Shown: positions 232-39,500, numbered from the stretch's first letter. The stretch: DNA of 64,000 nt from an uncultured delta proteobacterium (GCA_963735595.1 CAVTLK010000005.1:103760-167759), one strand, 5' to 3'. Program-made: numbers and translations. Notes: generated by a model not told the origin, from the letters alone.

Positions 232-1002
232 TCAGTTGATATCGGTGGGCGGGGCGGTATGCATCAGGAATGCGCCGTCTGTGAGGAACGCGCGCGCGTT
301 TGTTATGGTGTCGTCATAGAAGCAGATGAGGTTATGGATGTGATCCAGGAGCAGAAAGTCGGATGCCTCGGGCAGATAGGCTGATCGGACGGCGACGATG
401 CCGTCATCGTCGCCGGGAATGAAGATCGAATACCCCTGCCCGTCTCCCTTTCCTCCAGTGATGACTCCGAATTCCACGGCGGGCGCCCCGCCGCAGAGCG
501 CGCATAAATAATCGGGGCCCTGGGCCATCTCCATCAGCGCCGGGCCAAGGACCCTGTCGGCCAGCGGGAAGCGCGCCGCCAACTCCGCCTTGGTAACGCC
601 GCGGTTTGGCGTGGCGATCATCACCAGGCGCCTCGCCTGGGGCGGGTGGTATTTAGCCAGGTAACAACGGGCGACCAGCCCCCCCATGCTATGGGTGATG
701 AAGTCAAGCTCGTATGGACCGGTAATGCCTTCCGTCCCCCGCTCAATGACCCCTGCCAGGTAATCGGCGCATTCTTCTATGCTCATGGTAACGCTCGGGT
801 AGGTCTTGTTGATCACCACGTATCCCTCGCTGATGAGCTGTTTCTCCATGAAATAGAGGTGGAAACGGGTGTCCATAAAGCCGTGAACGAGGACGACAAC
901 CCTGACCGGCTGTTCGGCGGCCCGTGCCGTCGATGGGGCCGGGAGTGCCGATAAAAGCAGCATAATCGGAATGATCGTAATGATGGATTTTATGTGTCTC
1001 AC
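232..1002 (-). CDS. secreted alpha/beta-hydrolase (lipase/esterase-like)
   Basis: 256-aa ORF with an N-terminal signal peptide ([28 protein letters not shown]), the nucleophile-elbow motif G-H-S-M-G-G ([13 protein letters not shown]), and an HGF oxyanion-like motif (VLVHGF). These are typical of lipase/PGAP1-like alpha/beta hydrolases. Confidence 0.7.
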
Positions 1003-1123
1003 CGTATGTCCTTCAATTGTATTTTTACATTCTACCGTCCTTTTGTCCGGCCGTCAAATAGTCTTGAAAACAATAGGCCGGTATGGTACGATTTTACAAT
1101 TACCACGGGGGAGGTGGCCGGTA

Positions 1124-2104
1124 ATGTTTCCGGTAACCAGGATGAGACGTCTCAGGACGAAAGAGCCGATCCGGCGCATGGTCGAGGAAACGACATTAAC
1201 TGCCGCCGATTTCATCTATCCGATGTTTGTCGTTTTCGGCGCGGGCAAGAAGGAGGAAATCTCCGCCATGCCCGGTGTCTTCCGCCTCTCGACCGACCGG
1301 CTGGTTCGGGAGGCAGAACGGGTGTGGCGCCTCGGGGTCAGGGCCGTGCTGCTCTTCGGTATCCCCGAGACAAAGGACGAGATGGGAAGCTCCGGGTATG
1401 ATGACGACGGGGTCGTGCAGAACGCGGTAAGGGCGCTCAAAGGCGCTCTCCCCGACCTCGTGGTCATCACGGACGTTTGCCTCTGCGAGTATATGAGCCA
1501 CGGCCACTGCGGTATCGTGGCCGACGGCACTATCGTCAACGACCCTACGGTGGAGCTGCTTGCCCGTATAGCCGTCACGCACGCCCGGGCCGGGGCCGAC
1601 ATCGTGGCGCCGTCGGACATGATGGACGGGAGGATCGGGTCAATCAGACGCGCCCTGGACGAGGAGGGGTATGCCGATACGGCGATTATGTCGTACGCGG
1701 CCAAATACGCGTCGGGATTCTACGGGCCCTTCCGGGAGGCCGCGGGGTCCGCTCCCTCCTTTGGGGACCGCCGCTCTCACCAGATGGACCCCCCCAACGT
1801 ACGAGAAGCACTGCGGGAGGTGGCGCTGGACGTCGAGGAAGGGGCGGATATTATCATGGTAAAACCCGCGCTGGCATACCTTGACGTAATCTCGCTGGTC
1901 AGGGATCGTTTTGACCTGCCGATCGCGGCCTACAGTGTGAGCGGTGAATATGCGATGGTCAAGGCGGCGGCAAACAACGGATGGATAGACGGCGAGCGCG
2001 TCATGATGGAAATCCTGGTATCCATCAAGCGGGCAGGGGCGGATCTGATCATTTCATATTTCGCGCCCGAGGCGGCCGAAATCCTGTCGCGGCCGGCATC
2101 GTAA
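1124..2104 (+). CDS. hemB: porphobilinogen synthase (delta-aminolevulinic acid dehydratase)
   Basis: 327 aa starting at ATG 1124 with GGAGG 12-16 nt upstream. Cys-rich zinc site [14 protein letters not shown] and active-site lysine regions ([25 protein letters not shown]), characteristic of the HemB family. The long ORF from 971 is an N-terminal over-extension. Confidence 0.9.
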
Positions 2105-3228
2105 TGCTTACAACGAAGACGGCACCATCAATCGGTTCGGTCCCGCCGTTGAGGCTCGTTGCCTGGGAGCTGACGCGGTCGTGCAACCTTGCCTGTGCCC
2201 ATTGCCGGGCGTCGGCCCAGCGGGGGCCGTACCCGGGGGAGCTGTCCACCCGGCGGTCGCTTGAGCTCCTCTCGGAAATCGCGTCCTTCTCGTCGCCCAT
2301 CATTATCCTTACCGGGGGCGAGCCGTTGTTAAGGGACGACCTCTTTGCCATCGCCCGCCGGGGAACGGACCTCGGCCTGAGGATGGTGCTGGCAACCAAC
2401 GGGACGCTTTTGGAACGCCAGACCGTCCGTCGGCTCATCGATGCCGGGGTAGCCCGTATCTCTATTTCCATCGACGGCAAGGACGAGCGCTCTCACGATA
2501 ACCTCCGGGGGGTGGCCGGGGCATTTTCCGGGGCGCTTTTCGGAATCGAGAACGCCAAGCGTGAGGGCCTCTCGTTTCAGGTCAACACGACCATCACCAA
2601 GCGCAACGTCGCCGAGCTTTCCGAGATCGAGGACCTTGTCGGGCGACTCGGGGCCGACGCCCACCACCTGTTCCTCCTGGTTCCCACGGGCCGCGGCGCC
2701 GATATGGCCGGGGCCGGCGACTCACTGGTCGCCAAGGAGTACGAGGAGGTGCTCGGCCGGATATACCGTTACGAGATGAGCGCTCCGTATCCCGTCAAGG
2801 TCACGTGTGCCCCCCAGTACATGAGGATACGGCGTGAGACGGCCGACAGGGAGGGTACGGTCATCCGGGACGGCGGGCACGGATTTACGGCCTCCACGCG
2901 GGGATGCCTGGGCGGCATATCGTTTCTCTTTATCTCGCACGACGGAACGACCCAGCCCTGCGGATACCTCGAAGTAACCGGCGGCAACGTCACCGAGACC
3001 CCCATCAGGGATATCTGGGAACGGGCCGACGTATTCCGCCGGCTCAGGGACTACTCACAGCTGAAGGGAAAATGCGGCGTCTGCGAGCACGTGGATATCT
3101 GCGGCGGGTGCAGGGCGCGGGCGCTCTTTGCCCACGGCGACTACCTCGCCCAGGAGCCGTTCTGCCCCTATGTTCCCGGCAAGAAAAAGAAAGGGACGCA
3201 TCCTCCCGCGGCCACGTCGGGTTCGTAG
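2104..3228 (+). CDS. radical SAM/SPASM-domain protein, AhbD/NirJ-like (putative heme synthase of the siroheme-dependent pathway)
   Basis: CxxxCxxC radical SAM motif (CNLACAHC) near the N-terminus and a C-terminal SPASM Cys cluster (CGVCEHVDICGGCRARA). Its ATG overlaps the hemB stop (TAATG), implying translational coupling with a heme gene. The ORF-track start at 1981 is an in-frame over-extension. Confidence 0.75.
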   Translation: MLTTKTAPSIGSVPPLRLVAWELTRSCNLACAHCRASAQRGPYPGELSTRRSLELLSEIASFSSPIIILTGGEPLLRDDLFAIARRGTDLGLRMVLATNGTLLERQTVRRLIDAGVARISISIDGKDERSHDNLRGVAGAFSGALFGIENAKREGLSFQVNTTITKRNVAELSEIEDLVGRLGADAHHLFLLVPTGRGADMAGAGDSLVAKEYEEVLGRIYRYEMSAPYPVKVTCAPQYMRIRRETADREGTVIRDGGHGFTASTRGCLGGISFLFISHDGTTQPCGYLEVTGGNVTETPIRDIWERADVFRRLRDYSQLKGKCGVCEHVDICGGCRARALFAHGDYLAQEPFCPYVPGKKKKGTHPPAATSGS

Positions 3229-3434: not shown

Positions 3435-6400
3435 ATGAAACTGAAAAAATTAGACATCATCGGCTTCAAGTCATTCATCGATAAGGTCACGCTCGCCTTT
3501 CCCGACGGTGTTACCGCTATTGTCGGCCCAAACGGCTCCGGAAAATCGAACCTGATGGACGCAATCAAGTGGGCCCTCGGCGAGCAGAGCGCAAAGACGC
3601 TCAGGGGCAAGTCGATGGAGGACGTCATCTTCAACGGCTCCCGCGAAAAAAAACCTCTCGGGATGGCGGAGGTAACCCTTACCTTCGGCAATATCGACGG
3701 GAACCTGCCGCACAGCTTTTCGCATTACCACGAGATCACCATCCGCCGCCGTATCTACCGCTCGGGAGAAAGCGAATACTTCCTTAACAAGACACCCTGC
3801 CGCCTCAAGGATATCACCGACCTGTTTATGGGAACGGGTGTCGGTTCCAAGGCATACTCGATGATCGCACAGGGCCAGATCGGTGACCTGGTCACCGCCC
3901 GGCCGCTCGACCGGCGCAGCATTATCGAGGAGGTCGCCGGCATCACCAAGTATAAGGCCAAGAAGATTGAGTCCCAGCGGAAGATGGAGGCGACCCAGAC
4001 CAATCTGCTGCGCGTCGGAGACATCATCGGGGAGGTAAAACGGCAGATGGACTCCCTCTCCCAACAGGCCAGGAAGGCCGAGGAATACAAGGTCCTCAAG
4101 ACGGACGTGAAGCGTCTGGAACTGATCGCCGCCGCCCGGCACTTCATCCGGCTTGCCGAAACCATCAATCGGACGGGGCAGGCGCTGACCGAGAAAGAGC
4201 GTGAAGAGACACTCCTGTCCACCCGCCTGACGGTGCTGGAGGCGGCCATAGAACAGGAGAAGACGGCCTCGCTGGAAAAGGAAGAATCGTTCTCGGAGAT
4301 CCAGAAGAGCTTTTACATCAACGAAACCGAGATCAAGACCCTCGAACAGAAGATCGATCACCTCAAGGAGCGGATCGCGCTGACCAACAACCAGAACGGT
4401 ATCTTCGGGCGGGATATCGACGAGCTGACCCGCTTGATCGAGGAAAACACGCTCCGCCTTGAACAAACCGGTCAGCAAATTGCCGAATGCGACCGGGATT
4501 CTGTTTCCCATCAACAGAAGGTGGAGATTGTCGAGAATAAGATCGCGGCCCTGGCCGCGGTAATAGACGACCTGACCGCCCGATGGGAATCCATCCGGGA
4601 AAACCAGATGGCTGAGGCGTCCCATATCGCCCGGATCAACAACACGATCTCATCAGCGGAGAAATGGATCGAGCGATCAGAGCAGGATATCGAGAAAAAG
4701 AAAAATGAGCTTGAGACTATCTCCGAAGAACAGACGAGGCTTGCCGGCGCGCTGACGGGGATTCGTTCGGAGAAACAGCAGAAACAGCACGAACACGATC
4801 AAATGGCCGCCGACCTTTCCCGGATTCAGGGGGACGTCGGCCGGCATAAGGACCGGGAGGCCCAATTGACCGCTGATCACCGGCGGGCCGAGGAATCGCT
4901 GACCAAGGCAACCCTGAGAATTGATTCCCTTGCCGAGATGGAGAAGAGCTTCGAGGGCCTCACCGAAGGAACCAAGAGCGTTATGACCGGGGACCGGCAG
5001 GGCGTTCTCGGAATTTTCGCCGATTTCATCGAATCGGACGAGCGCCACGAAAAGGCCCTGGAAGGCTACCTCGGTGAGGCGGTCTCGGCGGTGGTCGTCA
5101 GGGGCCCGAAGGACGCCAGGGACCACATCGATCGGCTCAAGGGCTCCGGGTCTGGCCGGGCCGTGTTTATTCCCGTCGGGTCGATGAGACGAAGCTCCGG
5201 CGATGACGCCGCGTCGGCCGACGGCGCCATGGGAAGGCTCGCGGACTTTGTTACGGTAAAGGGGTCAGACGCGGATATCCTCAAGGCCCTGCTGGCCGGT
5301 GCGTTCCTTACCGCCGACCTGGGGCAGGCCATCGACATCTGGGAATCGCGGCGACCCAACGCCACCCTCGTAACCCTCGAAGGGGAAGTGCTGACCCGCG
5401 ACGGGCTCATTTTCGGGGGAAGCCGCCGGCAGCAGTTCTCGCTATTGAGAAACAAGCGGGAGAAAAAGACCCTTACCGAAGAACTGGAGGCGATCAAAAA
5501 AGAACTTGCCCATCACGATAACGAGCTGCAGAATGCCACATCGGCCCTGGCAGAAGGCCAGAAGCAGGAAAAGGCGCTCGAGGCCGAGCTAACCTCCCTC
5601 AAGATCCAAATCGAAAAGCTCGACGGGCAGATCGCTTCCGATGAGCGGGAAGAGCAGCGGCTTTCGAAGGCCCATCACATGCTTTCCTCGGAGATGGAGC
5701 GCGACCGGGCCGAGGTCGTGCGCCTGAAACAGGAACTGGAAGAATCAATGACCGCCCTGGTTGAGGCAGAGAAAAGGGAGCAGGAGCTAAAGGTGACCGC
5801 CGAAGGCGCCAAGTGGGACCTTACGCAGCAACAGCAGGAGATGAAGCGGCTTGAAGACGAGGAGACCGAGATCAGGCTGTCCGCCCAGACCGCCCAGGAC
5901 GCCAAGCGGCACCTCATGTCTTCGGTGGAGGAGTTCAACAGACAGGTCGCCCGGGCCCAAAGGGATCAGGAAAACAAGCGAAAGGCCGTTCAGGACGGCG
6001 TGGGAGAGATGGAGGAGTATACCCGGAGGATCGCCGAGACCGAGCAGTACCTGTACGGCGCCATAGAACAAGCCAAGCTCATCGAGGACAGGATGCGTGA
6101 CGCCCGGGCGCAGCTGGACGCCGCGGGCCTCAAACAGCACGACCTGGACGAGGAGAGGCGGCAGCTGGCCAAGACCCTCTCCTCCATCCGGGAGGAGGTC
6201 CAGCGCAACCGGGACGCGGTAAAGGAGCAGGCCTTCGAACAGGAGAACCTGACCACGCGTATTCGGGAGCGGCATCAGGAAGATTTGAGGGAGGTCCATT
6301 CGGAATACCTGACCGAAGAGATAACCGACGAAGAGCTCACTGCCAGACGTGAGGCGGCCCAGAGAAAGATCGAACGATTCGGCGAGGTAAACCTCATGGC

Positions 6401-6974
6401 GCTCTCGGAATACAATACGCTGGCAGAGCGGTTCGAATTTCTCAAGACGCAAGAAACCGACCTCGTGACGTCACTTGACTCGCTTGCGGATACCATCAAA
6501 CGAATCGATCGAAAATCACGGGAGCGGTTCACGGCGGCGTTTGAAGAGATCAATGAGAAATTCAAGGACGTCTTTGCGAGGCTCTTGCCGGGCGGCCGCG
6601 CGCGGCTCATCCTGACCGATGAATCCGATCCTCTCGAGAGCGGCGTTGATATCCTGGCCCAACCGGTGGGCAAGCGGCTGTCAAGCATTACGCTACTTTC
6701 CGGCGGTGAGAAGGCCCTGACCGCCATCGCGCTGATATTCGCCGTTTTCATGGTAAAACCCACCCCGTTTTGTATAATGGATGAAATGGACGCGCCGCTG
6801 GACGACATCAATACCGAGCGCATCATCGATCTCCTCAAGGAGATATCCCTGTCTTCGCAGGTTATCCTGATTACCCATAACAAAAAGACCATGGAGATGG
6901 CCGATACCCTGTACGGGCTTACCATGGAAGAGCCGGGGGTGTCCAAGACCGTTTCGGTGAAGCTGACCGCATAA
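3435..6974 (+). CDS. smc: chromosome segregation protein SMC
   Basis: 1179-aa ORF with an N-terminal Walker A (GPNGSGKSN), long coiled-coil regions, and a C-terminal ABC signature (LSGGEKALTAIALIFA) with Walker B (CIMDEMDAPLD). Confidence 0.95.
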   Translation: MKLKKLDIIGFKSFIDKVTLAFPDGVTAIVGPNGSGKSNLMDAIKWALGEQSAKTLRGKSMEDVIFNGSREKKPLGMAEVTLTFGNIDGNLPHSFSHYHEITIRRRIYRSGESEYFLNKTPCRLKDITDLFMGTGVGSKAYSMIAQGQIGDLVTARPLDRRSIIEEVAGITKYKAKKIESQRKMEATQTNLLRVGDIIGEVKRQMDSLSQQARKAEEYKVLKTDVKRLELIAAARHFIRLAETINRTGQALTEKEREETLLSTRLTVLEAAIEQEKTASLEKEESFSEIQKSFYINETEIKTLEQKIDHLKERIALTNNQNGIFGRDIDELTRLIEENTLRLEQTGQQIAECDRDSVSHQQKVEIVENKIAALAAVIDDLTARWESIRENQMAEASHIARINNTISSAEKWIERSEQDIEKKKNELETISEEQTRLAGALTGIRSEKQQKQHEHDQMAADLSRIQGDVGRHKDREAQLTADHRRAEESLTKATLRIDSLAEMEKSFEGLTEGTKSVMTGDRQGVLGIFADFIESDERHEKALEGYLGEAVSAVVVRGPKDARDHIDRLKGSGSGRAVFIPVGSMRRSSGDDAASADGAMGRLADFVTVKGSDADILKALLAGAFLTADLGQAIDIWESRRPNATLVTLEGEVLTRDGLIFGGSRRQQFSLLRNKREKKTLTEELEAIKKELAHHDNELQNATSALAEGQKQEKALEAELTSLKIQIEKLDGQIASDEREEQRLSKAHHMLSSEMERDRAEVVRLKQELEESMTALVEAEKREQELKVTAEGAKWDLTQQQQEMKRLEDEETEIRLSAQTAQDAKRHLMSSVEEFNRQVARAQRDQENKRKAVQDGVGEMEEYTRRIAETEQYLYGAIEQAKLIEDRMRDARAQLDAAGLKQHDLDEERRQLAKTLSSIREEVQRNRDAVKEQAFEQENLTTRIRERHQEDLREVHSEYLTEEITDEELTARREAAQRKIERFGEVNLMALSEYNTLAERFEFLKTQETDLVTSLDSLADTIKRIDRKSRERFTAAFEEINEKFKDVFARLLPGGRARLILTDESDPLESGVDILAQPVGKRLSSITLLSGGEKALTAIALIFAVFMVKPTPFCIMDEMDAPLDDINTERIIDLLKEISLSSQVILITHNKKTMEMADTLYGLTMEEPGVSKTVSVKLTA

Positions 6975-6986
6975 AAGGGGGAGCCG

Positions 6987-7346
6987 ATGCTGTTTTTCGA
7001 TACGATCAAACGGCTTGTTGATGAGATCCCGCAGGCGTCAGGTTGCATCATGGTGGACCGGCACGGAGATGAAATCATCACGTTTGCTCCCGAAAACGAC
7101 TTCCAGATGAAGCTGCTGGGGGCCCACATGGTTCTTATCCACCAGAAGCTTGCCGCGATAGAAAGGCGGATGGAAACGGGAAAGCATCGCGAGGTCTTTA
7201 TCAGGACGGACAATATCTACGTTATTACCACCCAGCTGCCGGACGGCAACTACCTCGTGTTGCGCCTGTCCCCGACCCCGTTGATCTCGCTTTCGCTCGA
7301 AAGGCTCCGAAAAGCGATCGTCGACATTATCGAAGAGGGCCAATGA
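6987..7346 (+). CDS. roadblock/LC7-like small protein (MglB-like fold)
   Basis: 119 aa with the roadblock-type hydrophobic pattern (GCIMVDRHGDEII...IYVITTQLPDGNYLVLRLS), similar in pattern to the roadblock protein at 23929. Its TGA stop overlaps the ftsY ATG (ATGA at 7343-7346). Confidence 0.5.
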   Translation: MLFFDTIKRLVDEIPQASGCIMVDRHGDEIITFAPENDFQMKLLGAHMVLIHQKLAAIERRMETGKHREVFIRTDNIYVITTQLPDGNYLVLRLSPTPLISLSLERLRKAIVDIIEEGQ

Positions 7347-8278
7347 GCGGCAAGGGGCTCATCTCGTCGCTATTCAAAGGGCTTTCAAAGACCCGCCAGG
7401 GCTTTACCGATCGGCTCGATACCCTGATCTCGGGGGCGCACGGCCTGGACGAGGGGCTTTATGATGAGATCGAAGAGCTCCTGGTAACCGCCGACATCGG
7501 CCTTCCACTGACCCAGAAGATTCTCGAGGAGCTCTCGGTGTGGGCTGGAAAGAATTCCATGAACAGGGCCGAGGGTACACTCCGGATAAAGGAATCGCTG
7601 TTGTCGGTCCTCGAGGGCAGCGAGGCAACCATACAGGCAAGCGACGAACCTCCCACGGTTGTCCTTGTCGTGGGGGTAAACGGCACCGGAAAAACCACCA
7701 CGATCGCCAAGGTTGCGCGCCATTTGATCGGCAACGGCAGGAGCGTACTGCTTGCGGCCGGGGATACGTTTCGTGACGCGGCCGTTGAGCAGCTCTCGGT
7801 ATGGGGCGACCGCCTCGGCGTCGAGGTCATTGCCCAAAAACAGGGGGCGGACCCCGCCGCTGTCGCCTTTGATGCGCTGGTCCGGGCCCAGACCCGGGGG
7901 ATTGACTACCTCTTCGTCGATACGGCGGGGAGGCTCCACACCAAGTACAATCTTGTCGAGGAACTCAAAAAGATAAAGCGGGTGCTGAAGGACCGGATGC
8001 CCTCGGCCCCCCATGAGACGCTCCTCGTGCTGGATGCCGGGATAGGCCAGAACAATATCGCCCAGGCCAGGAAATTTAACGAAGAGGTCGGGATTACGGG
8101 TATCGTCCTGACAAAACTGGACGGCAGCGCCAAGGGTGGCGCGATTTTTCCCCTCTTTGCGGATCTCAGAATCCCCATTAAGTACGTCGGTGTCGGAGAA
8201 GGCGCCGACGATCTTATGCCGTTTGACCGGCACAGTTTCGTGGAGGCGCTCTTTTCTACGGAAGCCGATGCCGCTTGA
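7343..8278 (+). CDS. ftsY: signal recognition particle receptor FtsY
   Basis: SRP-GTPase NG domain with G1 GVNGTGKTTT, DTAGR and TKLDGSAKGG motifs. The canonical position downstream of smc is consistent. Confidence 0.95.
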   Translation: MSGKGLISSLFKGLSKTRQGFTDRLDTLISGAHGLDEGLYDEIEELLVTADIGLPLTQKILEELSVWAGKNSMNRAEGTLRIKESLLSVLEGSEATIQASDEPPTVVLVVGVNGTGKTTTIAKVARHLIGNGRSVLLAAGDTFRDAAVEQLSVWGDRLGVEVIAQKQGADPAAVAFDALVRAQTRGIDYLFVDTAGRLHTKYNLVEELKKIKRVLKDRMPSAPHETLLVLDAGIGQNNIAQARKFNEEVGITGIVLTKLDGSAKGGAIFPLFADLRIPIKYVGVGEGADDLMPFDRHSFVEALFSTEADAA

Positions 8279-8316
8279 CTCTGACCCATAAAACCGCACA
8301 CCTAAACAAATAATTC

Positions 8317-8345
8317 TTGACTTTTCCCCCCCATAATTTCATAAT
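8317..8345 (+). promoter_or_regulatory. sigma70-type promoter (TTGACT-17-CATAAT)
   Basis: -35 TTGACT at 8317-8322, a 17-nt spacer, and -10 CATAAT at 8340-8345, inside an AT-rich patch in the 590-bp intergenic region. Confidence 0.4.
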
Positions 8346-8351
8346 AAGATT

Positions 8352-8510
8352 AAGGTGTGGGATAACGTTCCACGGTCAGCCCGCCATACGGGCTACCTCC
8401 TGGAACGGAAGCCCCCCGCAGTACGTTTTAACGCAATATGAATACATAATCAACGAGGTGTTATGGCTTTCATGCCCCCTGCCGTGTTCGTGATGGGGGG
8501 GATCTTTTTT
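8352..8510 (+). ncRNA. candidate small non-coding RNA (possible 6S RNA/ssrS by synteny with the 5-formyl-THF cyclo-ligase gene)
   Basis: The predicted TSS just after the promoter lies about 150 nt before a C5...G7 hairpin followed by T6 (8475-8510). No credible CDS is present (only a 64-aa ORF without an RBS). In E. coli and many proteobacteria ssrS sits immediately upstream of ygfA, which is the gene downstream here. Confidence 0.3.
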
Positions 8511-8872: not shown

Positions 8873-9442
8873 GTGACCAAGGACGAGATCAGAAAAGAGA
8901 TCCTCACCCGGCGGCTCGGCCTGAGCGATTCCGACGTGTCTGTGAAAAGCGAGTCGATCTGCCGCCGCCTTATCTCGGACGAGGTTTTCACTGCGGCCTC
9001 CGTGATCGGCCTCTACTGGCCGTTTAGAAACGAGGTCCTGACCGAGCCCATTTTTCGGGCCGCCCGGTCCGGCCGCAAACGGGTAGGGTTTCCGCTGGCG
9101 CGCTCCGAGGATCGGGCGCTCATCTATATAGCGGTCGATGATCCTGCGGATATGGCGACGGGGAGCTACGGTATCAGGGAGCCCCGCTATATCCCCCGGC
9201 GGGTCATTCCCGCCGAGGAGTTTGACCTTATCCTCATGCCCGGCGTCGCCTTCGATACGAGGGGGTATCGCATCGGGTACGGAGGGGGATATTTCGATCG
9301 GTTTTTTGCCGATCGTTCGGTAACTGCAACGAGGGCGGCGCCGGCCTTTGATATCCAAATGGTCGATCGGGTCCCCCACAAGGAGCATGATAGGAAGGTT
9401 GACGTTATCTTTACTGAAAGCCGCGTTATCATGTGTTCGTAA
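8873..9442 (+). CDS. 5-formyltetrahydrofolate cyclo-ligase
   Basis: 189 aa with a GTG start. It carries the family motifs GYGGGYFDR and PGVAFDxxGxRIG (MTHFS/YgfA family). Confidence 0.85.
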   Translation: MTKDEIRKEILTRRLGLSDSDVSVKSESICRRLISDEVFTAASVIGLYWPFRNEVLTEPIFRAARSGRKRVGFPLARSEDRALIYIAVDDPADMATGSYGIREPRYIPRRVIPAEEFDLILMPGVAFDTRGYRIGYGGGYFDRFFADRSVTATRAAPAFDIQMVDRVPHKEHDRKVDVIFTESRVIMCS

Positions 9443-25163: not shown

Positions 25164-25223
25164 AAATACTATTCCTTTTTGGGAATAATTGGTGTAGTAT
25201 ATGGTGAAAATGGGAGGAGACAG

Positions 25224-26501
25224 ATGAGAATCGAAATCGGGTATAAATTCATCTTTGGATTTATTTTGGTTATCCTCACGTCCGTGATCCTGCCGTATCT
25301 GGTGCGAGCCACCCACCTGGTCGACAATGAGATGATCAGCAATATGATCGCGGCCCTTTCGGCGATACTGGTTGGTTTGATCATCGGGTGGGTTTTCACC
25401 AGGAACTTCACCAAGGACTTCCGGGAATTGACGGCGACTACCGAGATAATCAGCCAGGGTGACCTGAGCCAGTATATAGAAATCTCGCACAAGAAGGTCT
25501 TCCCCGATGAAACGGTCGACCTGGCCAATTCCGTCAATCGAATGCTCGGGAGCCTGCGGGATCTGGTGTCCCATGTTAAACGGACGGCTGCGCAGGTTTC
25601 TGAATCGGCCCAGGGGCTGTCGTCCTCCGCGGAAGAAATAAACGCCTCTACCGAGGAGATCGCCTCCACTATCGAACAGATATCACGAGGGGCCGAGCAC
25701 CAGGCGGAACTCGTCGACAAAACCGGCAACATCATCAAGGACATCGCCAAGAAGATCGAACGGGTTGCCGAGACCGCCAAAGATCTCTCCGCCTCCTCGG
25801 CTCAAAGCCAGGAAGAGGCCGGAACTGCCGGCAAGATGGTGGATAACGCCATGGAGCGGATGCTCACGGTGTTCAATAATATGGAACACATCGGCAAGAA
25901 CATGCTTGATTTCTCCGAAAAGGCCAAGGAGATCGGTAAAATCGTCGAAGTTATCAGAAACGTTGCCCATCAGACCAACCTCCTTGCCCTTAACGCCACG
26001 ATTGAGGCCGCCCGGGCCGGGGAATACGGCCGGGGATTTACCGTTGTTGCCGACGAGATCAGGAAGTTGTCCGAGACGACAACGAAGTTTGCCGAAGAGA
26101 TCACGGGCCTGGTGACCGATATCAGTAAGGGGAGCCAGGAGGCCAACATCGAGGTAAGGGAAGTCCTCAAGAACGTGGATGAAGGCAAGGACGTCATCAA
26201 TTCGGTCGTTCAATCGCTCGGCGGAATAATCAGGGTTGCGCTGGATTCTCTCCATGAACTCAACCGAATATCCCAGCTCGCGATCGAACAGGCAAAAGAA
26301 GCCGAGGAGATGGTCAAAGCGGTCGATGAAATAGCGCGGCTTGCCGAGGACAACGCGGCGGCCACCGAAGAAGTGAGCGCTGCTACTGAAGAACAGACTG
26401 CATCCATGGAAGAGATGGCCTCGTCGGCGCAGGAACTCTCAATGACGTCCGAACAGCTAAAGGCGGTAGTCGATAGCTTCAAGCTGGAACCGGAGGCATA
26501 A
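25224..26501 (+). CDS. methyl-accepting chemotaxis protein with a minimal periplasmic loop
   Basis: Start ATG 25224 preceded by GGGAGGAG. Two TM helices separated by about 14 residues, a HAMP region, and an MCP signalling domain ([33 protein letters not shown]). Confidence 0.9.
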
Positions 26502-26508
26502 GACAGAA

Positions 26509-26985
26509 ATGGGAGACCATGCCGACGGCGTAGGTGCTGAGCGCCAGATAATCGCCTTTGCCCTCTCCCACGAGGTTTTCGGGATAGATATCGCGCGGGT
26601 GCAGCGGATTGCCCCACCCGAGACGATAACACGTGTGCCGCGAGCGCCGGCATTCATATTGGGCATCATGAATATGGCCGGGCGGATCATCACACTGATC
26701 GACCTTGCCCATATCCTGCATCTTGAGAGAGGTGACGAGTTGGGGCAGCAAATCATCATCCTTAACCATGATGACATGAACATAGGCTTTGTTACCGGCC
26801 AGGTTGCCGATGTCATCATGACGGACGATGAATCCCTGAACAGGGAGATCGTACGTATCAGCGCTCAGGATGAGAACTTCGTTTCGGCAATACTGAATAC
26901 AGGCGACCGTATTATCAACGTACTGAACATCGAAAAGCTGTTTGATTTTATAAAAAAATCTTTTGTCGACTCGAGGGGGAAATGA
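26509..26985 (+). CDS. cheW: chemotaxis coupling protein CheW
   Basis: 158-aa CheW-like domain (IIAFALSHEVFGIDIARVQRI...ILGIMNMAGRIITLIDL). Confidence 0.9.
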   Translation: MGDHADGVGAERQIIAFALSHEVFGIDIARVQRIAPPETITRVPRAPAFILGIMNMAGRIITLIDLAHILHLERGDELGQQIIILNHDDMNIGFVTGQVADVIMTDDESLNREIVRISAQDENFVSAILNTGDRIINVLNIEKLFDFIKKSFVDSRGK

Positions 26986-27350
26986 GTCTCAAGGTATTAA
27001 TTGTCGATGATGCGAGTTTTATGAGGGCCATGCTGAAGGACATCCTTGTCTCAGGCGGCTTTGATCTCGCGGGCGAGGCGGTGGACGGTGTCGAAGCGGT
27101 ACAGAAATACAAAGAGCTTAGGCCGGATGTCGTTACTATGGATATAGTAATGCCCCTCAGAAGCGGTATCGACGCCGTCAAGGAGATTATCGCCTTCAAT
27201 AAGGACGCGCGAATCATTATGTGCAGTGCGCTCGGCCAGGAATCCCTCGTTCTGGAGGCCATCAATGCCGGCGCGAAGGACTATATTATAAAACCGTTTG
27301 ACCCGGATAAGGTCGTCGAGATGGTCAAGAAGGTCGCCGGGGTCAAGTAG
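26982..27350 (+). CDS. cheY: response regulator CheY
   Basis: Single REC domain (VLIVDDASFMR...VVTMDIVMP...GAKDYIIKPF). Its start overlaps the cheW stop. Confidence 0.9.
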   Translation: MSLKVLIVDDASFMRAMLKDILVSGGFDLAGEAVDGVEAVQKYKELRPDVVTMDIVMPLRSGIDAVKEIIAFNKDARIIMCSALGQESLVLEAINAGAKDYIIKPFDPDKVVEMVKKVAGVK

Positions 27351-27353
27351 TCA

Positions 27354-27938
27354 ATGGCCGACGCAGTAAAGCTCGTGATTATCGCCGCCTCCACCGGCGG
27401 ACCAAAGATACTGCTGGACGTACTTTCGGCAATTCCTCAGGGTATTCCATCTGCAATTATTGTCATACAACATATGCTCCCGCGCTTTATCGGTTCGTTT
27501 GCAAAGCGTTTGGAAAAAGGTTCACATCTGTCCGTGCAGGTCGGAAGCGACGGGATGAGGCTCGGTAAGGGGACGACTATTTTAGCTCCCGGGGGCAAAC
27601 ATCTCATTTTGGTGCCGGATACGGACGGCGTAATCGTTGGTTTTGACGAATCAGGCCCGAGGGCGGGCGTCATGCCGTCGGCCGACGTTACCATGATTTC
27701 GGCCGCTCCCCTGTTCCGTGGAAACCTCCTGGGCGTTATCCTTTCCGGGATGGGCAGAGACGGGGTCGAGGGATTTGCCGCGATAAAACGCGAGGGTGGT
27801 TCAACGGTCGTTGAAGATGAAGCATCAAGCGCGATTTATGGAATGCCGGGCCGGGCATTGACGCGGGGACTGGCCGACAAGGTCCTTACTCCGCACGAGG
27901 TTGCCCTGGAAATCATCGATTTTTCGTCGAGGATCTAG
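27354..27938 (+). CDS. cheB: protein-glutamate methylesterase, catalytic domain only (CheB without receiver domain)
   Basis: Catalytic triad contexts AASTGGP (Ser), IQHM (His) and GMGRDG (Asp) are present. There is no N-terminal REC domain (194 aa). Confidence 0.85.
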   Translation: MADAVKLVIIAASTGGPKILLDVLSAIPQGIPSAIIVIQHMLPRFIGSFAKRLEKGSHLSVQVGSDGMRLGKGTTILAPGGKHLILVPDTDGVIVGFDESGPRAGVMPSADVTMISAAPLFRGNLLGVILSGMGRDGVEGFAAIKREGGSTVVEDEASSAIYGMPGRALTRGLADKVLTPHEVALEIIDFSSRI

Positions 27939-27941
27939 ACC

Positions 27942-30103
27942 ATGGATATGTCCCGATATAAAAAGATATTCATGGAAGAGGCCCGGGAACACCTCGAGAA
28001 GATCAGCAGCCTCTCCCTGGAGATGGAAAAAAATCCCGAAGATATGGAGGTCATCAACGCCATTTTCCGGGAGGCCCACTCGATCAAGGGGATGGCGGCC
28101 TCGATGGGCTACACCCCGATATCCGAGCTGACCCATAAGGTCGAAGACCTCATGGACCTTATCCGAAAGGGGGAGATCGGCGCCAGTTCCCATCTCGTTG
28201 ACGTGATGCTCAGGGCCATAGACGTCCTGGAGAATCAACTCAACGCGATTGATACCGGCGGTGATACCGAGGCGGGACTTACCGAAGTCCTTGAAATGAT
28301 CGAGCGATCCCGAAAGGGCGACATACCCGAAAAGCAGCCGAAACCCGCACAAAAGCAGCCCCCTGCCGAAGAGAAGGCGCCCCCGGAGGGAAAGAGGATC
28401 AGGCCGCCTATATCGTAACCCTGGTCATACGGGAAGACGAGCCCAAGCCGAACGTCAAGGGCCTGCTGGGGGTTAAGAAGCTTTCAGAACTCGGCAAGGT
28501 CATGGGATTGGTCCCGGGCCTTGAGGAGATCAGGAAAGGATTGAAAGGCCGGGAACTGAAGGCGACACTGGTAACCGGGGTTGGGGAAGACGACGTAATG
28601 CGGGCGTTGAGGGGCTTGGCGTACCTTGCGTCATTTGACGTTATCAAGACAAGCGTCAAAACCGGTGGAGAGAGGGGAAAAGGGGAGCCTGCCAAATCCC
28701 CTATCGGGCCGGAAACCGTTGAATTTCGGCCTCCCCCCGATTCAGGTCCCGTTAATCGGCACGATACGGATATATCCCAGGCGGAGACGGCCGTAGACGA
28801 GCCGCCCGTCGAATGGGTCTCGGAAGAGCTGGCCATCCAGCAAGAGACTGCAGGGGTCAATCCTCCCGCGCAGTCTGTCTCCCCCGGCCGGGAATCATCC
28901 TCCAGTGAAGGACCGCGTGTGGAAGAGATGCTCCCGTCAGGAGAGGCGGGGGCGGGGCTGCCGCGATCGGTCCGTATCGGAACCGACCTCCTGGAGAGCT
29001 TCATTAATATTGTTGGTGAGCTGCTCATCACCAAATCCCGTATCCAACAGCAAACCCGGGGCCTCGCCATCACTCCTCTGGATGAGTCGGTAAACCGGCT
29101 CGAGAGCCTGATTAGAGAGCTCCATACGCGGGTAATCACCGTCAGGATGATGCCGCTGGAAAGCATCCTTTCACGGATGCCCCGCCTCGTGCGAGATCTT
29201 GCCCGGGAGAAAGGTAAGGACATAGAATTTACCATCACCGGCGGTGATATCGAGCTTGACCGCGCGATCCTCGAGGAGCTCACTGACCCGCTGGTTCATA
29301 TCCTGAGAAACGCCGTGGACCACGGGATAGAGCCGCCGAATCAGCGCCAGATGTCCGCGAAATCCCCGACGGGGAAAATCATGTTGTCGGCATACCGCGA
29401 GCGGGACCTCGTAATCCTCGAGGTCACCGACGACGGCCGCGGCATCGACCCGGCGAAGATCAGGGAGGCCGCCGTCCAGCGCGGGATCATGAAAAAGCAG
29501 CAGATCGATCTTCTTGACGACCGGGACGTGTTACTGCTTGCGTTCATGCCGAATCTCTCAACGAATAAGGAGGTCTCGGACATATCGGGACGGGGTGTTG
29601 GGATGGACGTGGTTAAGACCAAGGTAGAGTCCTTGGGCGGCTCGGTACGGCTGGAATCCCGAAAGGACGAGGGTACGAAGATCGTCCTGTCTCTTCCGCT
29701 TACGGTTGCTATCATACAGGCCCTCTTGATCAAGTCGGACGGAGAGACATTTGCCCTGCCCCTTTCAAAGACGATAAAGTCGGCGGAAGTGGCCGCGGCG
29801 TCGGTTCAGATGAGCCAGAATCAGAGGGTAGTCTTCATAGACGGCGATATGATCCCTCTGTTCAAAGTGGGGGATCTTCTGGGGTTTTCCGACGGCAGGA
29901 TTGACGACAGGGATATCTCGCTGATCGTCTCCGAAGTGCGTGGAAAACACATCGGTCTCCAGGTTGACGAAATTGTCGGGAGCCAGGAGATATTTATTAA
30001 GTCTCTCGGCTACCCCCTTGAGAAGATCCAGGGCTTTTCGGGCGTTACGATCCTGGGTGACGGGAAGCCCGTACTAATAATCGATATCGGGAACCTCTTT
30101 TAG
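27942..30103 (+). CDS. cheA: chemotaxis histidine kinase CheA (single gene; apparent split at 28416 caused by a 1-nt deletion in an A-run)
   Basis: HPt/P1 (REAHSIKGMAASMGY), then dimerisation, HATPase (ILRNAVDHGIE, DDGRGID, GRGVGMDVV) and C-terminal CheW-like domains. The P1 frame stops at 28416-28418, but the downstream frame is open from at least 28325 through to the ATG at 28502. Restoring one 'a' in ggaaag (28389-28394) fuses APPEG to KEDQAAYIVTL. Confidence 0.85.
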
Positions 30104-30106
30104 CAA

Positions 30107-30703
30107 ATGGATATAGACTCAATTCTCATCGATAAGAGCAGACTTATAGAAAAGCGTTCTCAGGACGCCCTGATCAGCTCGGCGTTGGCGCTTTCCCAGA
30201 TGACGGGGGAAACGGTCGATGTTGTCAGAACGATCGTCGACCTGATCAAGGTTCAAGAGATAGCGACATACATCGGTGATCGTGACGACAAGGTCACCCT
30301 TATCGCGCTGGACGTTCACGGAAAAATATCGGGAGACATCTACATCCTGCTCTCATCGTCGGACACGATGCTGATCACCAAGAAGGTCGCCGATAGATGG
30401 ATGAAAGAGGAGGAGATAGAGAAATTCAAAAACTCGGTGCTTGCCGAGGTAGGCAACATCGTGGCGTCGGCGTATATTAACGTATTGGGCGATTCGTTCA
30501 ATGTCGCCTTAATACCTTCCGTTCCCCGCCTCGAATTCGTTAGCGGGGAAGCGCTCATCCCCAAGATCCTTTCGAAGGGCGATTCCGATTTCGCACTCAT
30601 GTTCTTCTCGGAATTTGTCGTCGGGGAACGCGGGATTAAGGTCTTCTTCTTTTTCCTTCTGTCCAATGCATCGATGCAGTACCTCGGAGGCCATGCCCCA
30701 TGA
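30107..30703 (+). CDS. CheC/CheX-family CheY-P phosphatase
   Basis: A single E-x2-N...P active-site motif (LAEVGNIVASAYINVLGDSFNVALIPSVP), about 198 aa, positioned after cheA. Confidence 0.65.
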   Translation: MDIDSILIDKSRLIEKRSQDALISSALALSQMTGETVDVVRTIVDLIKVQEIATYIGDRDDKVTLIALDVHGKISGDIYILLSSSDTMLITKKVADRWMKEEEIEKFKNSVLAEVGNIVASAYINVLGDSFNVALIPSVPRLEFVSGEALIPKILSKGDSDFALMFFSEFVVGERGIKVFFFFLLSNASMQYLGGHAP

Positions 30704-31446
30704 ATCAGGAGGCAGTCAAAAATCTCCTGATTGGGGTCAAGAGCGGAGAAGTACCTGTCGAAGAGGCGATCGACAGGCTCAAGTCGTTGCCGTATCTTGA
30801 CCTCGGATTCGCCGTTGTCGATACCCATCGGGCGCTCAGGCAGGGATTCCCCGAGGTTATCATGGGCGAGGGGAAAGAGCCGCGAGATATCCTCGGTATT
30901 ATCGAAAGCCTCAGAAAAACCGGCAATACTATCCTCGTGACCCGCGTAGATACCGAAAAGGCTCGGGTGGTCCGGGAGCAGCTTCCCGAGATGACGTATA
31001 ACGAGCGTGCGCGGTCTCTCGTCCTTATCGAAGGGGAGATCACGATACGGGGAAAGGGGGCGATCATGGTAGTTTCGGCCGGAACCTCCGACATCCCGGT
31101 GGCCGAAGAAGCGGCCGTTGTTTGCGAGCTTATGGGAAACCGCACCGAGCGCCTCTGGGACGTGGGAGTGGCGGGGATACACCGGCTTATGAACCACGTC
31201 GACCGATTACGGGGCGCCAACGTGCTGGTAGTGGCGGCGGGGATGGAGGGGGCGCTGCCGTCGGTTATCGGGGGGATCGTAGAACGCCCGGTGGTGGCTG
31301 TACCCACCAGTGTCGGGTATGGCGCAGGTTTCGGCGGGCTCTCGGCGCTGCTGGGGATGCTCAATTCCTGTGCTGCGGGAGTATGCGTCGTTAATATCGA
31401 TAACGGCTTCGGTGCGGGATACGTTGCTTCCCTGATTAACCGATAA
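30700..31446 (+). CDS. larB: PurE-like AIR-carboxylase-related protein, LarB family (nickel-pincer cofactor biosynthesis)
   Basis: 248 aa with the PurE-like core (MVVSAGTSDIPVAEEAA...VAAGMEGALPSVIGG...AVPTSVGYGAGFGG) typical of the COG1691/LarB family. Its start overlaps the cheC/X stop. Confidence 0.75.
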   Translation: MNQEAVKNLLIGVKSGEVPVEEAIDRLKSLPYLDLGFAVVDTHRALRQGFPEVIMGEGKEPRDILGIIESLRKTGNTILVTRVDTEKARVVREQLPEMTYNERARSLVLIEGEITIRGKGAIMVVSAGTSDIPVAEEAAVVCELMGNRTERLWDVGVAGIHRLMNHVDRLRGANVLVVAAGMEGALPSVIGGIVERPVVAVPTSVGYGAGFGGLSALLGMLNSCAAGVCVVNIDNGFGAGYVASLINR

Positions 31447-34338: not shown

Positions 34339-34836
34339 ATGACCGGGCAATGGCAAGCTGTTAAAGATCGTCTCATCACGGTTTTCGCAACCGGGTTTGG
34401 TTTAGGGTATCTGCCGCTCGTCCCGGGAACGTTCGGGACGCTCGTCGGTATTCCGATTTGCCTGTTGTTGAGCCTCGGTGGATGGGTTATTTACGTTTCA
34501 GGGACGCTTGCGCTGATTGCGGCGGGTGTCTGGGTGGCGGGCCGGACCGATCGGATCTTTGGGACGCATGATTCCCGGAAGATCGTCATCGACGAAATAT
34601 GCGGTTTCCTGGTCACTATGGCCTTGGTGATCCCGGGACCTCTCACGATCGGGATCGGTTTTGTCGCATTCAGGCTCTTTGACATCCTGAAGCCTTTTCC
34701 GGCGAGCTATTTCGATCGAAGCCTGTCGGGAGGATGGGGGGTGATGCTGGACGATATCGCCGCCGGCGTTTATGCCAACGTGACGCTTCACCTGTCTTTG
34801 GCAATCATCGGCCTCGTGTGGCCGGGGGTTTTGTGA
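34339..34836 (+). CDS. pgpA: phosphatidylglycerophosphatase A
   Basis: 165-aa PgpA family (FGLGYLPLVPGTFGTLVGIP...IVIDEICGF). The ATG lies 4 nt after the preceding stop. Confidence 0.85.
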   Translation: MTGQWQAVKDRLITVFATGFGLGYLPLVPGTFGTLVGIPICLLLSLGGWVIYVSGTLALIAAGVWVAGRTDRIFGTHDSRKIVIDEICGFLVTMALVIPGPLTIGIGFVAFRLFDILKPFPASYFDRSLSGGWGVMLDDIAAGVYANVTLHLSLAIIGLVWPGVL

Positions 34837-36110
34837 AGGGCGAGATCATAACCATAGGAAACGAGCTGTTGTCGGGGCTTGTGGTCGATACCAATCGCTC
34901 CTATATCGCCGGACGTCTGATGACGGCCGGGGTTATGTCTTCCTTTATGACTACCGTCGGCGATGACGAGGACGCGATAGGCGATGCGGTCGGCCGGGCG
35001 GTTTCCCGCGCCGGCGTGGTCGTCATTACCGGCGGGTTGGGCCCCACGCCCGACGATATTACCTCCAAGTGTGTCGCAAAGGCGTTGGAACGGCGGCTCG
35101 TGCTTTCCCCCGAGGCCGAGCAGCAGATACGAGACCGGTACAAGAAGCGCGGGATACCATTGCCGGCGGACGCCGGCCGGCAGGCCCTGATTCCGCAAGG
35201 CGCCCGGGTTATCGTAAACCCGGTCGGGACGGCCCCCGGATACTATCTGGTTATCGGGGAGCGGATCATCGTCGTCCTGCCCGGCGTCCCCGAAGAAATG
35301 CGGGTGATGGTCGATCAGGGTGTGTTGCCGATCCTCGAGACCCAGCGGAATGCCGACTCCTTTATCGTCAGGAGGATTCTCAGGATATTCGGGCTGACCG
35401 AATCGCAGGTCAACGAACGCGTCAGGGAGGTGCCGTACGACAGCCGGCGGATAGCCATCGGTTTCCTGCCGGTATTTCCTGAAAACCACCTGACCATCAC
35501 GGCATGCTCGTCGGTCTCGCGGCAAGAGGCCGAAGAGATCGGCGACAAGACGGCGCGGGCCATGCGGGCGGTTCTTGGCGACCGGGTCTTCGGCCAGGAC
35601 GACCAGACTCTTGAGGCGGTGGTCGGGGGAATGCTCATTAACCGGGGATGCACCGTGGCCGCAGCGGAATCGTGCACCGGCGGGCTACTTTCCCAGCGGC
35701 TTACCGCTATACCGGGCAGCTCTTCGTATTTCCTGCGCGGCGTGGTGACATATAGCAACGATTCAAAGGCGGATCTCCTGGGAGTCGACCCCGCGCTGAT
35801 CAGCGAATTCGGCGCGGTAAGCGATACCGTAGCCTCGGCCATGGCCCGGGGAATTAAGGAGTCTTCGTCGGCCGACCTGGGCATCTCGATTACCGGGATC
35901 GCGGGGCCGTCGGGGGGCACGCGGGAAAAACCGGTCGGAACGGTTTTTATCGGGATGGCCTTTGATGACGAGGGGGCGCTCTCGGTCCGCTCGCACGGCT
36001 ACCGCTTTAACGGGGACCGCGCCAGGATCAGGCTCATTGCCTCGGAAATGGCGCTCGAGTGGATCAGAAGATATCTCATCCGGGGACCGTCCACGAACGG
36101 AGAAATGTAG
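34833..36110 (+). CDS. cinA: competence/damage-inducible protein CinA (MocF/CinA N-terminal plus CinA C-terminal domain)
   Basis: GTG start overlapping the pgpA stop. N-terminal KGEIITIGNELLSGLVVDTN and C-terminal CinA deamidase-type domain (AAESCTGGLLSQRLT...GISITGIAGPSGG). Confidence 0.85.
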   Translation: MKGEIITIGNELLSGLVVDTNRSYIAGRLMTAGVMSSFMTTVGDDEDAIGDAVGRAVSRAGVVVITGGLGPTPDDITSKCVAKALERRLVLSPEAEQQIRDRYKKRGIPLPADAGRQALIPQGARVIVNPVGTAPGYYLVIGERIIVVLPGVPEEMRVMVDQGVLPILETQRNADSFIVRRILRIFGLTESQVNERVREVPYDSRRIAIGFLPVFPENHLTITACSSVSRQEAEEIGDKTARAMRAVLGDRVFGQDDQTLEAVVGGMLINRGCTVAAAESCTGGLLSQRLTAIPGSSSYFLRGVVTYSNDSKADLLGVDPALISEFGAVSDTVASAMARGIKESSSADLGISITGIAGPSGGTREKPVGTVFIGMAFDDEGALSVRSHGYRFNGDRARIRLIASEMALEWIRRYLIRGPSTNGEM

Positions 36111-36695: not shown

Positions 36696-37721
36696 TTGAT
36701 GACTGGTGATGAGAATAAAGAGAAATCATTGAGCCTTGCCCTTTCGCAAATAGAGAAGCAGTTCGGCAAGGGTTCGATCATGAAACTCGGCGACGATGTG
36801 GCCATCCCCGAAATTGCCGTGATCCCCACCGGTTCGTTGGGCCTGGATCTGGCCCTCGGTGTGGGGGGGATCCCCCGCGGCAGGGTCATTGAGATCTACG
36901 GTCCCGAGGCATCGGGGAAGACTACCCTGGCGCTGCACATTATCGCGGAGGCCCAGCGCCTGGGCGGAGTGGCGGCGTTTATCGACGCCGAGCACGCGCT
37001 GGACATCAACTATGCCGGCAACCTCGGCATAAAGACGCAGGAGCTCCTGATCTCCCAGCCCGATACCGGAGAGCAGGCGCTCGAGATCACCGATATCCTG
37101 GTGCGCAGCGGCGCCGTGGATGTCCTGGTTGTCGACTCGGTGGCGGCGCTCGTCCCCCGGGCGGAGATCGAGGGGGAAATGGGGGACTCTCACATGGGCC
37201 TTCAGGCCCGCCTGATGTCTCAGGCGATGCGTAAACTCACCGGGTCAATCTCCAAGTCCAAGACGGCCGTGATTTTCATCAACCAGATCAGGATGAAAAT
37301 AGGGGTGATTTTCGGCAATCCCGAGACGACGACCGGCGGCAATGCCCTGAAGTTCTATTCGAGCGTCAGGCTCGATATCCGCAGGACTGCCGCGCTCAAG
37401 GAAGGCCAGGACGTCGTCGGAAACCGCACAAAGGTAAAGGTCGTGAAAAACAAGATCGCCCCTCCCTTCAAGGAAGTGGAGTTTGATATCATATACGGCC
37501 TGGGGATCTCCAAGGAAGGGGAGCTTGTAGACATGGCCTCCGACGACGGGATAATTGAGAAGAGCGGCACCTGGTACTCGTACGGCGAAGAGCGAATCGG
37601 CCAGGGAAGGGAGAACGCCAAGAGGTTCCTCCTTGAGAATCCGGATACCTGCGCCCAGATCAGAACCAAGGTCATGGAAAAGCACGGATTTATCAGGAAT
37701 CCACAGAAGGATCCGTCATAA
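36696..37721 (+). CDS. recA: recombinase RecA
   Basis: Walker [10 protein letters not shown] and the canonical RecA core ([23 protein letters not shown]). Confidence 0.95.
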
Positions 37722-37731
37722 GAGGTACGCG

Positions 37732-39375: not shown

Positions 39376-39500
39376 GTCAGCCGATGGGGAGCCTTCGCGG
39401 ATACCGCGGGCACATAGTGCGTATTTACCGGGGTCTTGTGACCCCGCTGTCATACTGATTGTTCCGTTGAGCCGTTAATTGGGTTAAATAGGAATCTGCC

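Follow-up and report, generated by a model that had tools for sequence, protein, structure and literature searches.

Roadblock and longin modules are recurrent GTPase-binding platforms, as in MglB with MglA, Ragulator with Rag, and the SRX domain of the alpha subunit of the eukaryotic SRP receptor (SR-alpha) with SR-beta. Members of the roadblock superfamily form homo- or heterodimers through a b-sheet edge and helix a2. SRX, an a/b domain of the longin type, has the small GTPase SR-beta as its binding partner. To our knowledge, a longin/roadblock-type module of this kind together with a second GTPase is known only in eukaryotes. The bacterial receptor, FtsY, is regarded as a single-subunit receptor which finds the membrane via its own amphipathic helices and SecYEG. 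Its activation depends on heterodimerisation with Ffh and on SRP RNA rather than on an external GAP. We know of no roadblock regulator of FtsY-type (SIMIBI) GTPases.

MglC (MXAN_5770; PDB 7ct3/7cy1) is a homodimeric connector: RomR binds MglC and MglC binds MglB (PMC10329633). It is not a GAP itself and has no effect on the GAP activity of MglB (PMC10329633). Its interface with MglB involves F25/D26/I28 on the two-helix face, and that with RomR K104/R106/R110. McLoon et al. named the MglC-like branch 'MglB_orphan1', a set of 59 members in which an invariant G27 is preceded by a conserved D26 and whose genes occur only in genomes with a group-1 MglA (PMC4719450). MglB, the GAP of MglA (PDB 6hjm, 3t12, 1j3w), is encoded within four genes of mglA and co-evolves with it (PMC4316618). 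SRX and longin domains are mentioned in PMC4686813.

We analysed a stretch of 64,000 nucleotides from an uncultured delta proteobacterium (GCA_963735595.1, CAVTLK010000005.1:103760-167759), referred to here as the window. A sequence-only reading had drawn attention to a 119-aa ORF with a roadblock-like pattern, described as inserted between smc and ftsY and translationally coupled to ftsY, and had raised a GAP/GEF-type role towards FtsY. The ORF lies at the place claimed, with an ATG start, and the peptide quoted for it (GCIMVDRHGDEII ... IYVITTQLPDGNYLVLRL) is an exact match to the translation. The features of this locus are:

3435 to 6974, + strand: smc, 1179 aa (Pfam SMC_N 233.7 bits, SMC_hinge 64.4 bits)
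6975 to 6983, + strand: Shine-Dalgarno-like AAGGGGGAG, read from the sequence, within the 12-nt spacer between smc and the roadblock gene
6987 to 7346, + strand: gene for a 119-aa protein with a predicted roadblock/LC7 fold, assigned to an MglC-like branch (PF03259, AF2, Foldseek, profiles, dN/dS)
7056 to 7073, + strand: codons of the b1-b2 loop D24-R-H-G27-D-E29, at the site of the MglB-binding FDI patch of MglC
7343 to 7346, + strand: ATGA stop/start overlap (roadblock TGA, ftsY ATG), read from the sequence
7343 to 8278, + strand: ftsY, 311 aa (TIGR00064 335.2 bits with a cutoff of 260.7 bits, SRP54 248.7, SRP54_N 34.7)

The TAA stop of smc occupies 6972-6974 and the roadblock ORF begins 12 nt downstream. 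G-rich counterparts of the Shine-Dalgarno-like site are present in five relatives (L002-L006). No promoter- or terminator-like site was found on the + strand at the interior boundaries of smc, the roadblock ORF and ftsY, and the three genes are presumably co-transcribed in the window. The ftsY product is an SRP receptor of the NG-only kind, without an A domain, whose single amphipathic motif is at the N-terminus; the N-terminal sequence (MSGKGLISSLFKGLSKTRQ) can be aligned with those of relatives.

The roadblock ORF is a genuine gene and not a chance open frame, since it has 13 full-length homologues (56-95% identity), the dN/dS among members of the window clade is 0.04-0.24 (Nei-Gojobori) and the junction with ftsY is identical across all close relatives. 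The nearest relatives of the window are sequences labelled 'uncultured delta proteobacterium' and Candidatus Zymogenaceae MAGs. An antisense ORF (7038 to 7343) is open in most close relatives because of the high GC content. It was rejected: it is broken in a 56%-identical relative (L001), and the dN/dS of the sense frame favours the gene on the + strand.

The roadblock-like pattern is upheld by PF03259 (Robl_LC7), which matches over the full domain (5-89 of 91), and by the predicted fold. The window protein falls short of the gathering score of this model (19.1 bits, E=1.1e-3, where 23 is required). Among the aligned relatives, 30 of 42 reach E<=0.01 (best 5e-9), and many relatives carry a precomputed PF03259 match. 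NCBIfam has no model matching the roadblock protein. Used as a single sequence, it matches best, within the PDB, a Thorarchaeota roadblock protein (E=0.064), followed by MglC (E=0.26). Sequence evidence alone for roadblock identity is marginal, and it is the predicted structure that settles the fold. The AF2 model, obtained with a 14-sequence alignment (pLDDT 74.8, pTM 0.65), has the topology a1-b1-b2-a2-b3-b4-b5-a3, which contains the roadblock sandwich a-b-b-a-b-b-b (helices 2-13, 38-63 and 100-118; strands 17-23, 29-33, 69-73, 78-83 and 89-94). The best 50 Foldseek matches of this model in the PDB all belong to the roadblock superfamily (TM 0.5-0.76, E down to 1.1e-6). They include Asgard Roadblock, Streptomyces Robl/LC7, MglC, MglB, LAMTOR and dynein LC7, and the highest TM (0.76) is that of MglC. 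The window protein is a single-domain roadblock protein and probably a homodimer.

An exhaustive profile search provided about 70 further cluster representatives of 117-122 aa which match from end to end. Two profiles were used, one of the close (window) clade (A1) and one of the wider family (A2). Against the PDB, A2 identifies MglC (7ct3) with E=7.3e-18 (profile 1-118 against MglC 1-120) and the next-best roadblock structure with E=9.6e-8; it does not reach the MglB chains at E<=1. Direct alignment of A2 with Myxococcaceae MglC using hhalign gives 99.1% (E=1.2e-18, 118 columns). With A1 the match to MglC is weak (E=0.057; hhalign 67.8%), so that the link between the window clade and MglC rests on intermediate sequences. 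HMM cross-scores place the groups in the order window clade, Geomonas type, Myxococcaceae MglC. Because of the A2 match, the hhalign result and this order, we assign the window protein to the MglC-like 'orphan MglB' branch, and the profiles point to MglC as its closest characterised relative over the full length. The earlier description of a generic roadblock protein is therefore correct for the fold and too broad for the family, which is specifically MglC-like.

The likeness to MglC extends to length (120 against 119 aa), an end-to-end alignment with a single 2-residue gap, the predicted a-b-b-a-b-b-b-a roadblock topology, the invariant G27 and the absence of an adjacent mglA. The differences are an identity of only about 19% to the window protein and a gene that, in Myxococcaceae, follows pilMNOPQ whereas that of the window abuts the ftsY start. 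The window protein and MglB have the roadblock fold in common (Foldseek E about 1e-5, TM up to 0.74), as well as a conserved pair of acidic residue and glycine in the b1-b2 loop region (PMC4316618), but the neighbours of the window gene are smc and ftsY, with no mglA. No MglA-like gene was found in the 64-kb window by tblastn (approximate MglA query; best E=0.09, not significant) and there is no small-GTPase Pfam match among the window ORFs scanned. CvnB of the actinobacterial conservons (3leq, 3kye) and Asgard Roadblock (7f8m, 9jue) are also single-domain proteins of similar length. They are far more distant than MglC (profile E=1e-7 to 1e-2, fold E about 1e-6), and the conservon partners CvnA, CvnC and CvnD are absent here.

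The family is already known and is annotated as 'roadblock/LC7 domain-containing protein', sometimes wrongly as 'GTPase'. For example, P0103, P0107, P0111 and several Myxococcaceae records are roadblock proteins of 119-120 aa named 'GTPase'. This label is a mis-annotation: these proteins have no P-loop and are of the regulator/adaptor type. One metagenomic record of 278 aa (P0028) has a roadblock domain (3-118) followed by a ferritin-like domain (148-277), which is either a real fusion or an artefact of gene calling.

We compared the residues corresponding to the MglC interfaces in a joint alignment of 207 family members. The b1-b2 loop is GFDGIS in all 119 Myxococcaceae proteins, DWEGEA in all 74 proteins of the Geomonas type and DRHGDE in 13 of the 14 members of the window clade, with a family-wide consensus of D-x-[E/D]-G-E-x. 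All groups have an invariant G27. At position 24, MglC has G where the window clade and the Geomonas type both have D. The D26 of the MglC subfamily is not kept: position 26 is H in the window clade (14/14) and E in the Geomonas type (74/74). The MglB patch of MglC (F25/D26/I28) thus becomes R25/H26/D28 in the window and W/E/E in the Geomonas type, where two of the three changes are conservative (F to W, D to E). In place of the RomR patch (K104/R106/R110), the window has L102/L104/R108; the residues found at these positions in the Geomonas type are L (45/74), L (71/74) and R (66/74). Judged from these alignments, the specific MglC contacts are lost and each clade holds its own acidic b1-b2 loop at this place. 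A loop that is clade-specific and invariant at the site where MglC binds its partner would imply a partner that is conserved but different.

We then considered gene order. A metagenome scan with the pattern [AVL]DWEGEAV, ranked by similarity to the Geomonas protein, added 80 loci, and clustering of the loci at 95% protein identity gave 82 clusters, of which we count those outside Myxococcaceae. The ftsY gene directly abuts the roadblock gene in 64 of 67 evaluable non-redundant lineages, a count from a sample which the DWEGEA-seeded scan biases to one broad clade, whose loci are not independent events, and which is inflated because of shared ancestry and the general synteny of this housekeeping block. 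Within these 64 lineages, the distance between the two genes is -4 nt (n=4), -1 (n=29), 0 (n=21), +1 (n=9) or +2 (n=1), with a standard deviation of 1.2 nt. The upstream gene is smc in 68 of 75 evaluable lineages, at a spacing that ranges, in the same loci, from 0 to 269 nt (median 65).

L001 and Geomonas sp. RF6 (complete genome, CP087999.1; L007) have the order smc-roadblock-ftsY with an overlapping stop and start, and the same arrangement occurs in other lineages at about 25% protein identity, so the pairing is kept over a divergence at which the roadblock protein retains only this much identity. It also persists in other surroundings. In one locus (L013), ompH is inserted behind smc and the roadblock gene still abuts ftsY. 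Two Nitrospirota MAGs (L015, L016) have DAGK/PAP2 upstream in place of smc, with ftsY 1 nt past the roadblock stop; the downstream genes differ too, and these loci share only the roadblock-ftsY pair of the Desulfobacterota synteny. The pair lies behind an ammonium transporter in L055 and behind a divergent ftsK in L082. Separations also occur: L076 has a toxin-antitoxin pair upstream and an AFOR gene inserted ahead of ftsY; on the P0040 contig a two-gene insert parts the roadblock gene, which stays beside smc, from ftsY; and L014 has the order smc-roadblock-PilZ, with 5 nt between smc and the roadblock gene and without ftsY.

The conserved unit is roadblock-ftsY, since the ftsY junction is tight and the pair persists without smc, which is a usual but dispensable neighbour. 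The notion of an insertion between smc and ftsY must therefore be replaced by that of this two-gene unit. In contrast, the translational coupling to ftsY finds support in the ATGA overlap (7343-7346), and the arrangement strongly passes the check proposed with that reading, conservation in relatives: it is kept at -4 to +2 nt in 64/67 and also where smc is absent. Since the whole smc...tyrS block is syntenic across relatives, adjacency alone is weak evidence.

Two other branches of the MglC-like family are located elsewhere:

L010-L012, 8001 to 8363: Myxococcaceae mglC, in the order pilM-N-O-P-Q, a 201-227-aa gene, mglC, efp, accB, accC
L009, 7001 to 7366, and L097, 1408 to 1770: a third MglC-like clade with the loop AADGEA, about 120 aa

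In Myxococcaceae (Pyxidicoccus, Stigmatella), mglC is in a pilus cluster and not beside ftsY. The gene of 201-227 aa between pilQ and mglC has no Pfam match in L010-L012, and the pil-cluster context of mglC is not mentioned in the MglC literature examined. The AADGEA clade (L009, L097) always lies between a divergent ECF sigma-70/anti-sigma pair and TonB_C genes. Among MglC-like proteins, coupling to ftsY is therefore confined to one branch.

Other features of the window are:

971 to 3228, + strand: hemB (ALAD) and a radical-SAM/SPASM gene, directly upstream of smc, as in L001 (1543 to 3613)
8473 to 8655, + strand: 6S/SsrS RNA gene (RF00013, 105.9 bits, full-length model)
8873 to 9442: 5-formyltetrahydrofolate cyclo-ligase gene; the 6S RNA lies between ftsY and this gene
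25179 to 31446, + strand: chemotaxis cluster, including an MCP (25179 to 26501), CheW (26509 to 26985) and a CheB methylesterase (27354 to 27938)
34734 to 36110, + strand: cinA
36696 to 37721, + strand: recA
37555 to 38898, + strand: PilT/T2SSE-type ATPase ORF
39492 to 42128, + strand: alaS, broken over at least 3 reading frames (Pfam fragments)

Only 194 nt separate ftsY from the 6S RNA gene, and the only + strand sigma-70-like site of the region (8317-8345) is upstream of the latter. The pairing of 6S RNA and cyclo-ligase is that of ssrS-ygfA in E. coli. In L001 (8676 to 9690) and in Geomonas (L007, 8655 to 9103), zapB and zapA lie 3' of ftsY; they are absent from the corresponding interval of the window (8279 to 8472), from the whole 64 kb and from the L002-L006 flanks. 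NirD/L-like siroheme-decarboxylase-type genes occur near hemB in L001, which suggests the alternative haem pathway. The chemotaxis cluster also includes a separate Hpt ORF (27942 to 28418), a CheA core (28502 to 30103) and a CheC-like gene (30107 to 30703); Hpt may truly be separate from the CheA core, or a further frameshift may divide the two. As listed, the ATPase ORF begins before recA ends, so translation probably starts at a site further downstream. Pieces of alaS are distributed over three ORFs (tRNA-synt_2c 1-314 in 39501 to 40481, 481-549 in 40946 to 41986, and tRNA_SAD with DHHA1 in 41298 to 42131), which points to assembly indel errors or a pseudogene. In a related MAG contig (L002/L005) smc and ftsY are fragmented too.

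The explanation that we prefer, with the balance for and against it about level, is that the protein is a non-catalytic roadblock adaptor which is co-produced with FtsY and works with it. It is the most economical model because the nearest characterised relative, MglC, is a non-catalytic connector. The two genes would form a conserved unit in which the roadblock stop overlaps or touches the ftsY start. Ribosomes finishing the roadblock ORF could then re-initiate on ftsY, which would couple the synthesis of the two proteins at a constant ratio. The adaptor would serve the SRP receptor or a targeting step under its control. It might dock via the acidic b1-b2 loop, which is invariant within the clade and lies on the two-helix face of the dimer, and thereby place FtsY, or act as its scaffold, at a defined site of the membrane, for example the pole, with no GAP or GEF action. 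We infer that the protein is linked physically or functionally to FtsY, that it is a dimer and that the loop has this role. In favour of the model are the known use of roadblock and longin modules as GTPase-binding platforms, the lack of promoter- or terminator-like sites between the three genes of the window, and the following observations: the ftsY junction is held at -4 to +2 nt while smc spacing varies; the pair persists behind unrelated upstream genes and across phyla; and, as far as the alignments indicate, the interface residues differ from those of MglC while the protein keeps an invariant loop of its own.

Other observations count against the adaptor. The gene survives away from ftsY in L014, on the P0040 contig and in L076, and neither Myxococcaceae mglC nor the ECF-sigma/TonB clade is ever beside ftsY. 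Stop/start overlaps are common in compact operons. No roadblock-FtsY fusion was found among about 190 family members: the long hits have no SRP54 domain and are the roadblock plus ferritin-like protein, proteins with N-terminal extensions or an unrelated repeat protein. No special docking motif was found in the N-termini of the paired FtsY proteins, which consist of one or two standard amphipathic membrane-targeting motifs and a variable acidic/proline linker. FtsY of the window clade and of the Nitrospirota is NG-only, and that of the Geomonas type has two amphipathic motifs and a variable linker. A mirror-tree comparison of roadblock and FtsY-NG identities (Spearman 0.79) was rejected as evidence because co-inherited neighbouring genes would correlate in any case.

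A role in a polarity module unrelated to FtsY is a serious alternative, as the Geobacterales which have this arrangement also have MglA, MglB and RomR. The protein would then be a plain MglC orthologue, connecting MglA, MglB and RomR for type-IV-pilus polarity, and the adjacency to ftsY would be inherited gene order with no meaning for the SRP pathway. We consider this the main rival, somewhat less probable than the adaptor. No other characterised protein comes near MglC in similarity (E=7.3e-18 compared with 1e-7 for the next roadblock structure), and 'orphan MglB' genes are found in genomes with a group-1 MglA (PMC4719450). Geobacter has an MglA that is 80-82% identical to the M. xanthus protein and an MglB (PMC3000849), together with RomR (PMC3441718). 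The F to W and D to E changes of the Geomonas type are conservative, the window itself includes the chemotaxis cluster and the PilT-like ATPase, and in a wholly syntenic smc...tyrS block adjacency carries little weight. However, neither clade keeps the RomR patch (K104 to L, R106 to L), and the window clade has R/H/D as its FDI equivalent, with H26 replacing the D26 of the subfamily. The junction with ftsY is also far stricter than that with smc, and the pair is retained behind four different sets of upstream genes and across two phyla. Nitrospirae are absent from the group-1 MglA lineages of a 2014 survey (PMC4316618), which is weak evidence since few genomes were sampled. If this alternative is true, the gain is one of annotation only, 'MglC-like' instead of 'hypothetical' or 'GTPase'.

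It is very unlikely that the protein is instead a partner of SMC or of the division and segregation genes (smc, zapB, zapA), positioning for example condensin or the division site. This would account for the presence of smc upstream in most lineages (68/75), for its spacer of only 0-12 nt in the window clade, for the retention of smc on the P0040 contig and, 5 nt away and without ftsY, in L014, and for zapB and zapA downstream of ftsY in many relatives. However, smc is absent upstream in at least four lineages with ftsY at or near the gene, its spacing is variable (0-269 nt), and the window and its closest relatives are without zapA and zapB yet retain the roadblock gene. We know of no roadblock partner of bacterial condensin.

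The GAP or GEF role towards the FtsY GTPase, proposed by analogy with MglB, is the least credible reading and finds no support: it could draw on the fold in common with a GAP (TM 0.74) and on the tight coupling to a GTPase gene, but MglC, the only characterised member, is a connector that lacks GAP activity and leaves that of MglB unchanged (PMC10329633), the family profile has no match to MglB by sequence at E<=1, and FtsY owes its activation to Ffh and SRP RNA and not to an external GAP.

What is new here is a group of MglC-like proteins whose interface residues differ and whose gene is coupled to that of the SRP receptor in a strictly conserved manner. No description linking roadblock, MglB or MglC to FtsY was found in the open-access literature, and the MglC literature examined does not mention ftsY or smc. 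That the pairing is kept in dozens of lineages and in two phyla suggests an unrecognised partner of the SRP receptor. A roadblock protein obligatorily co-produced with FtsY across a broad set of environmental bacteria would, if the adaptor model is true, add a new accessory factor to the SRP pathway. A bolder version, which we regard as unlikely, is that the SRP receptor of Desulfobacterota and Nitrospirota has two components: a roadblock dimer of the MglB/MglC lineage would bind FtsY and localise it to a site such as the pole, and MglC would be a derived paralogue re-wired to MglB and RomR. The parallel with SRX is conceptual only. Both would place a small a/b sandwich ahead of the NG domain, but SRX is fused to the NG protein whereas the window-type ORF is separate in all 64 adjacent cases.

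A two-component receptor, if it exists, would parallel in bacteria the SRX/SR-beta arrangement of eukaryotes and would tie co-translational insertion of membrane proteins to the cell-polarity machinery. Since cultured and genetically tractable hosts (Geomonas, Geobacter) carry the pair, the hypothesis is directly testable. Most relatives of MglC are welded to ftsY and do not have the residues that contact MglB and RomR, which raises the question of the ancestral function of the family. An FtsY-coupled roadblock protein, if confirmed, could provide a concrete link between polarity modules and protein targeting.
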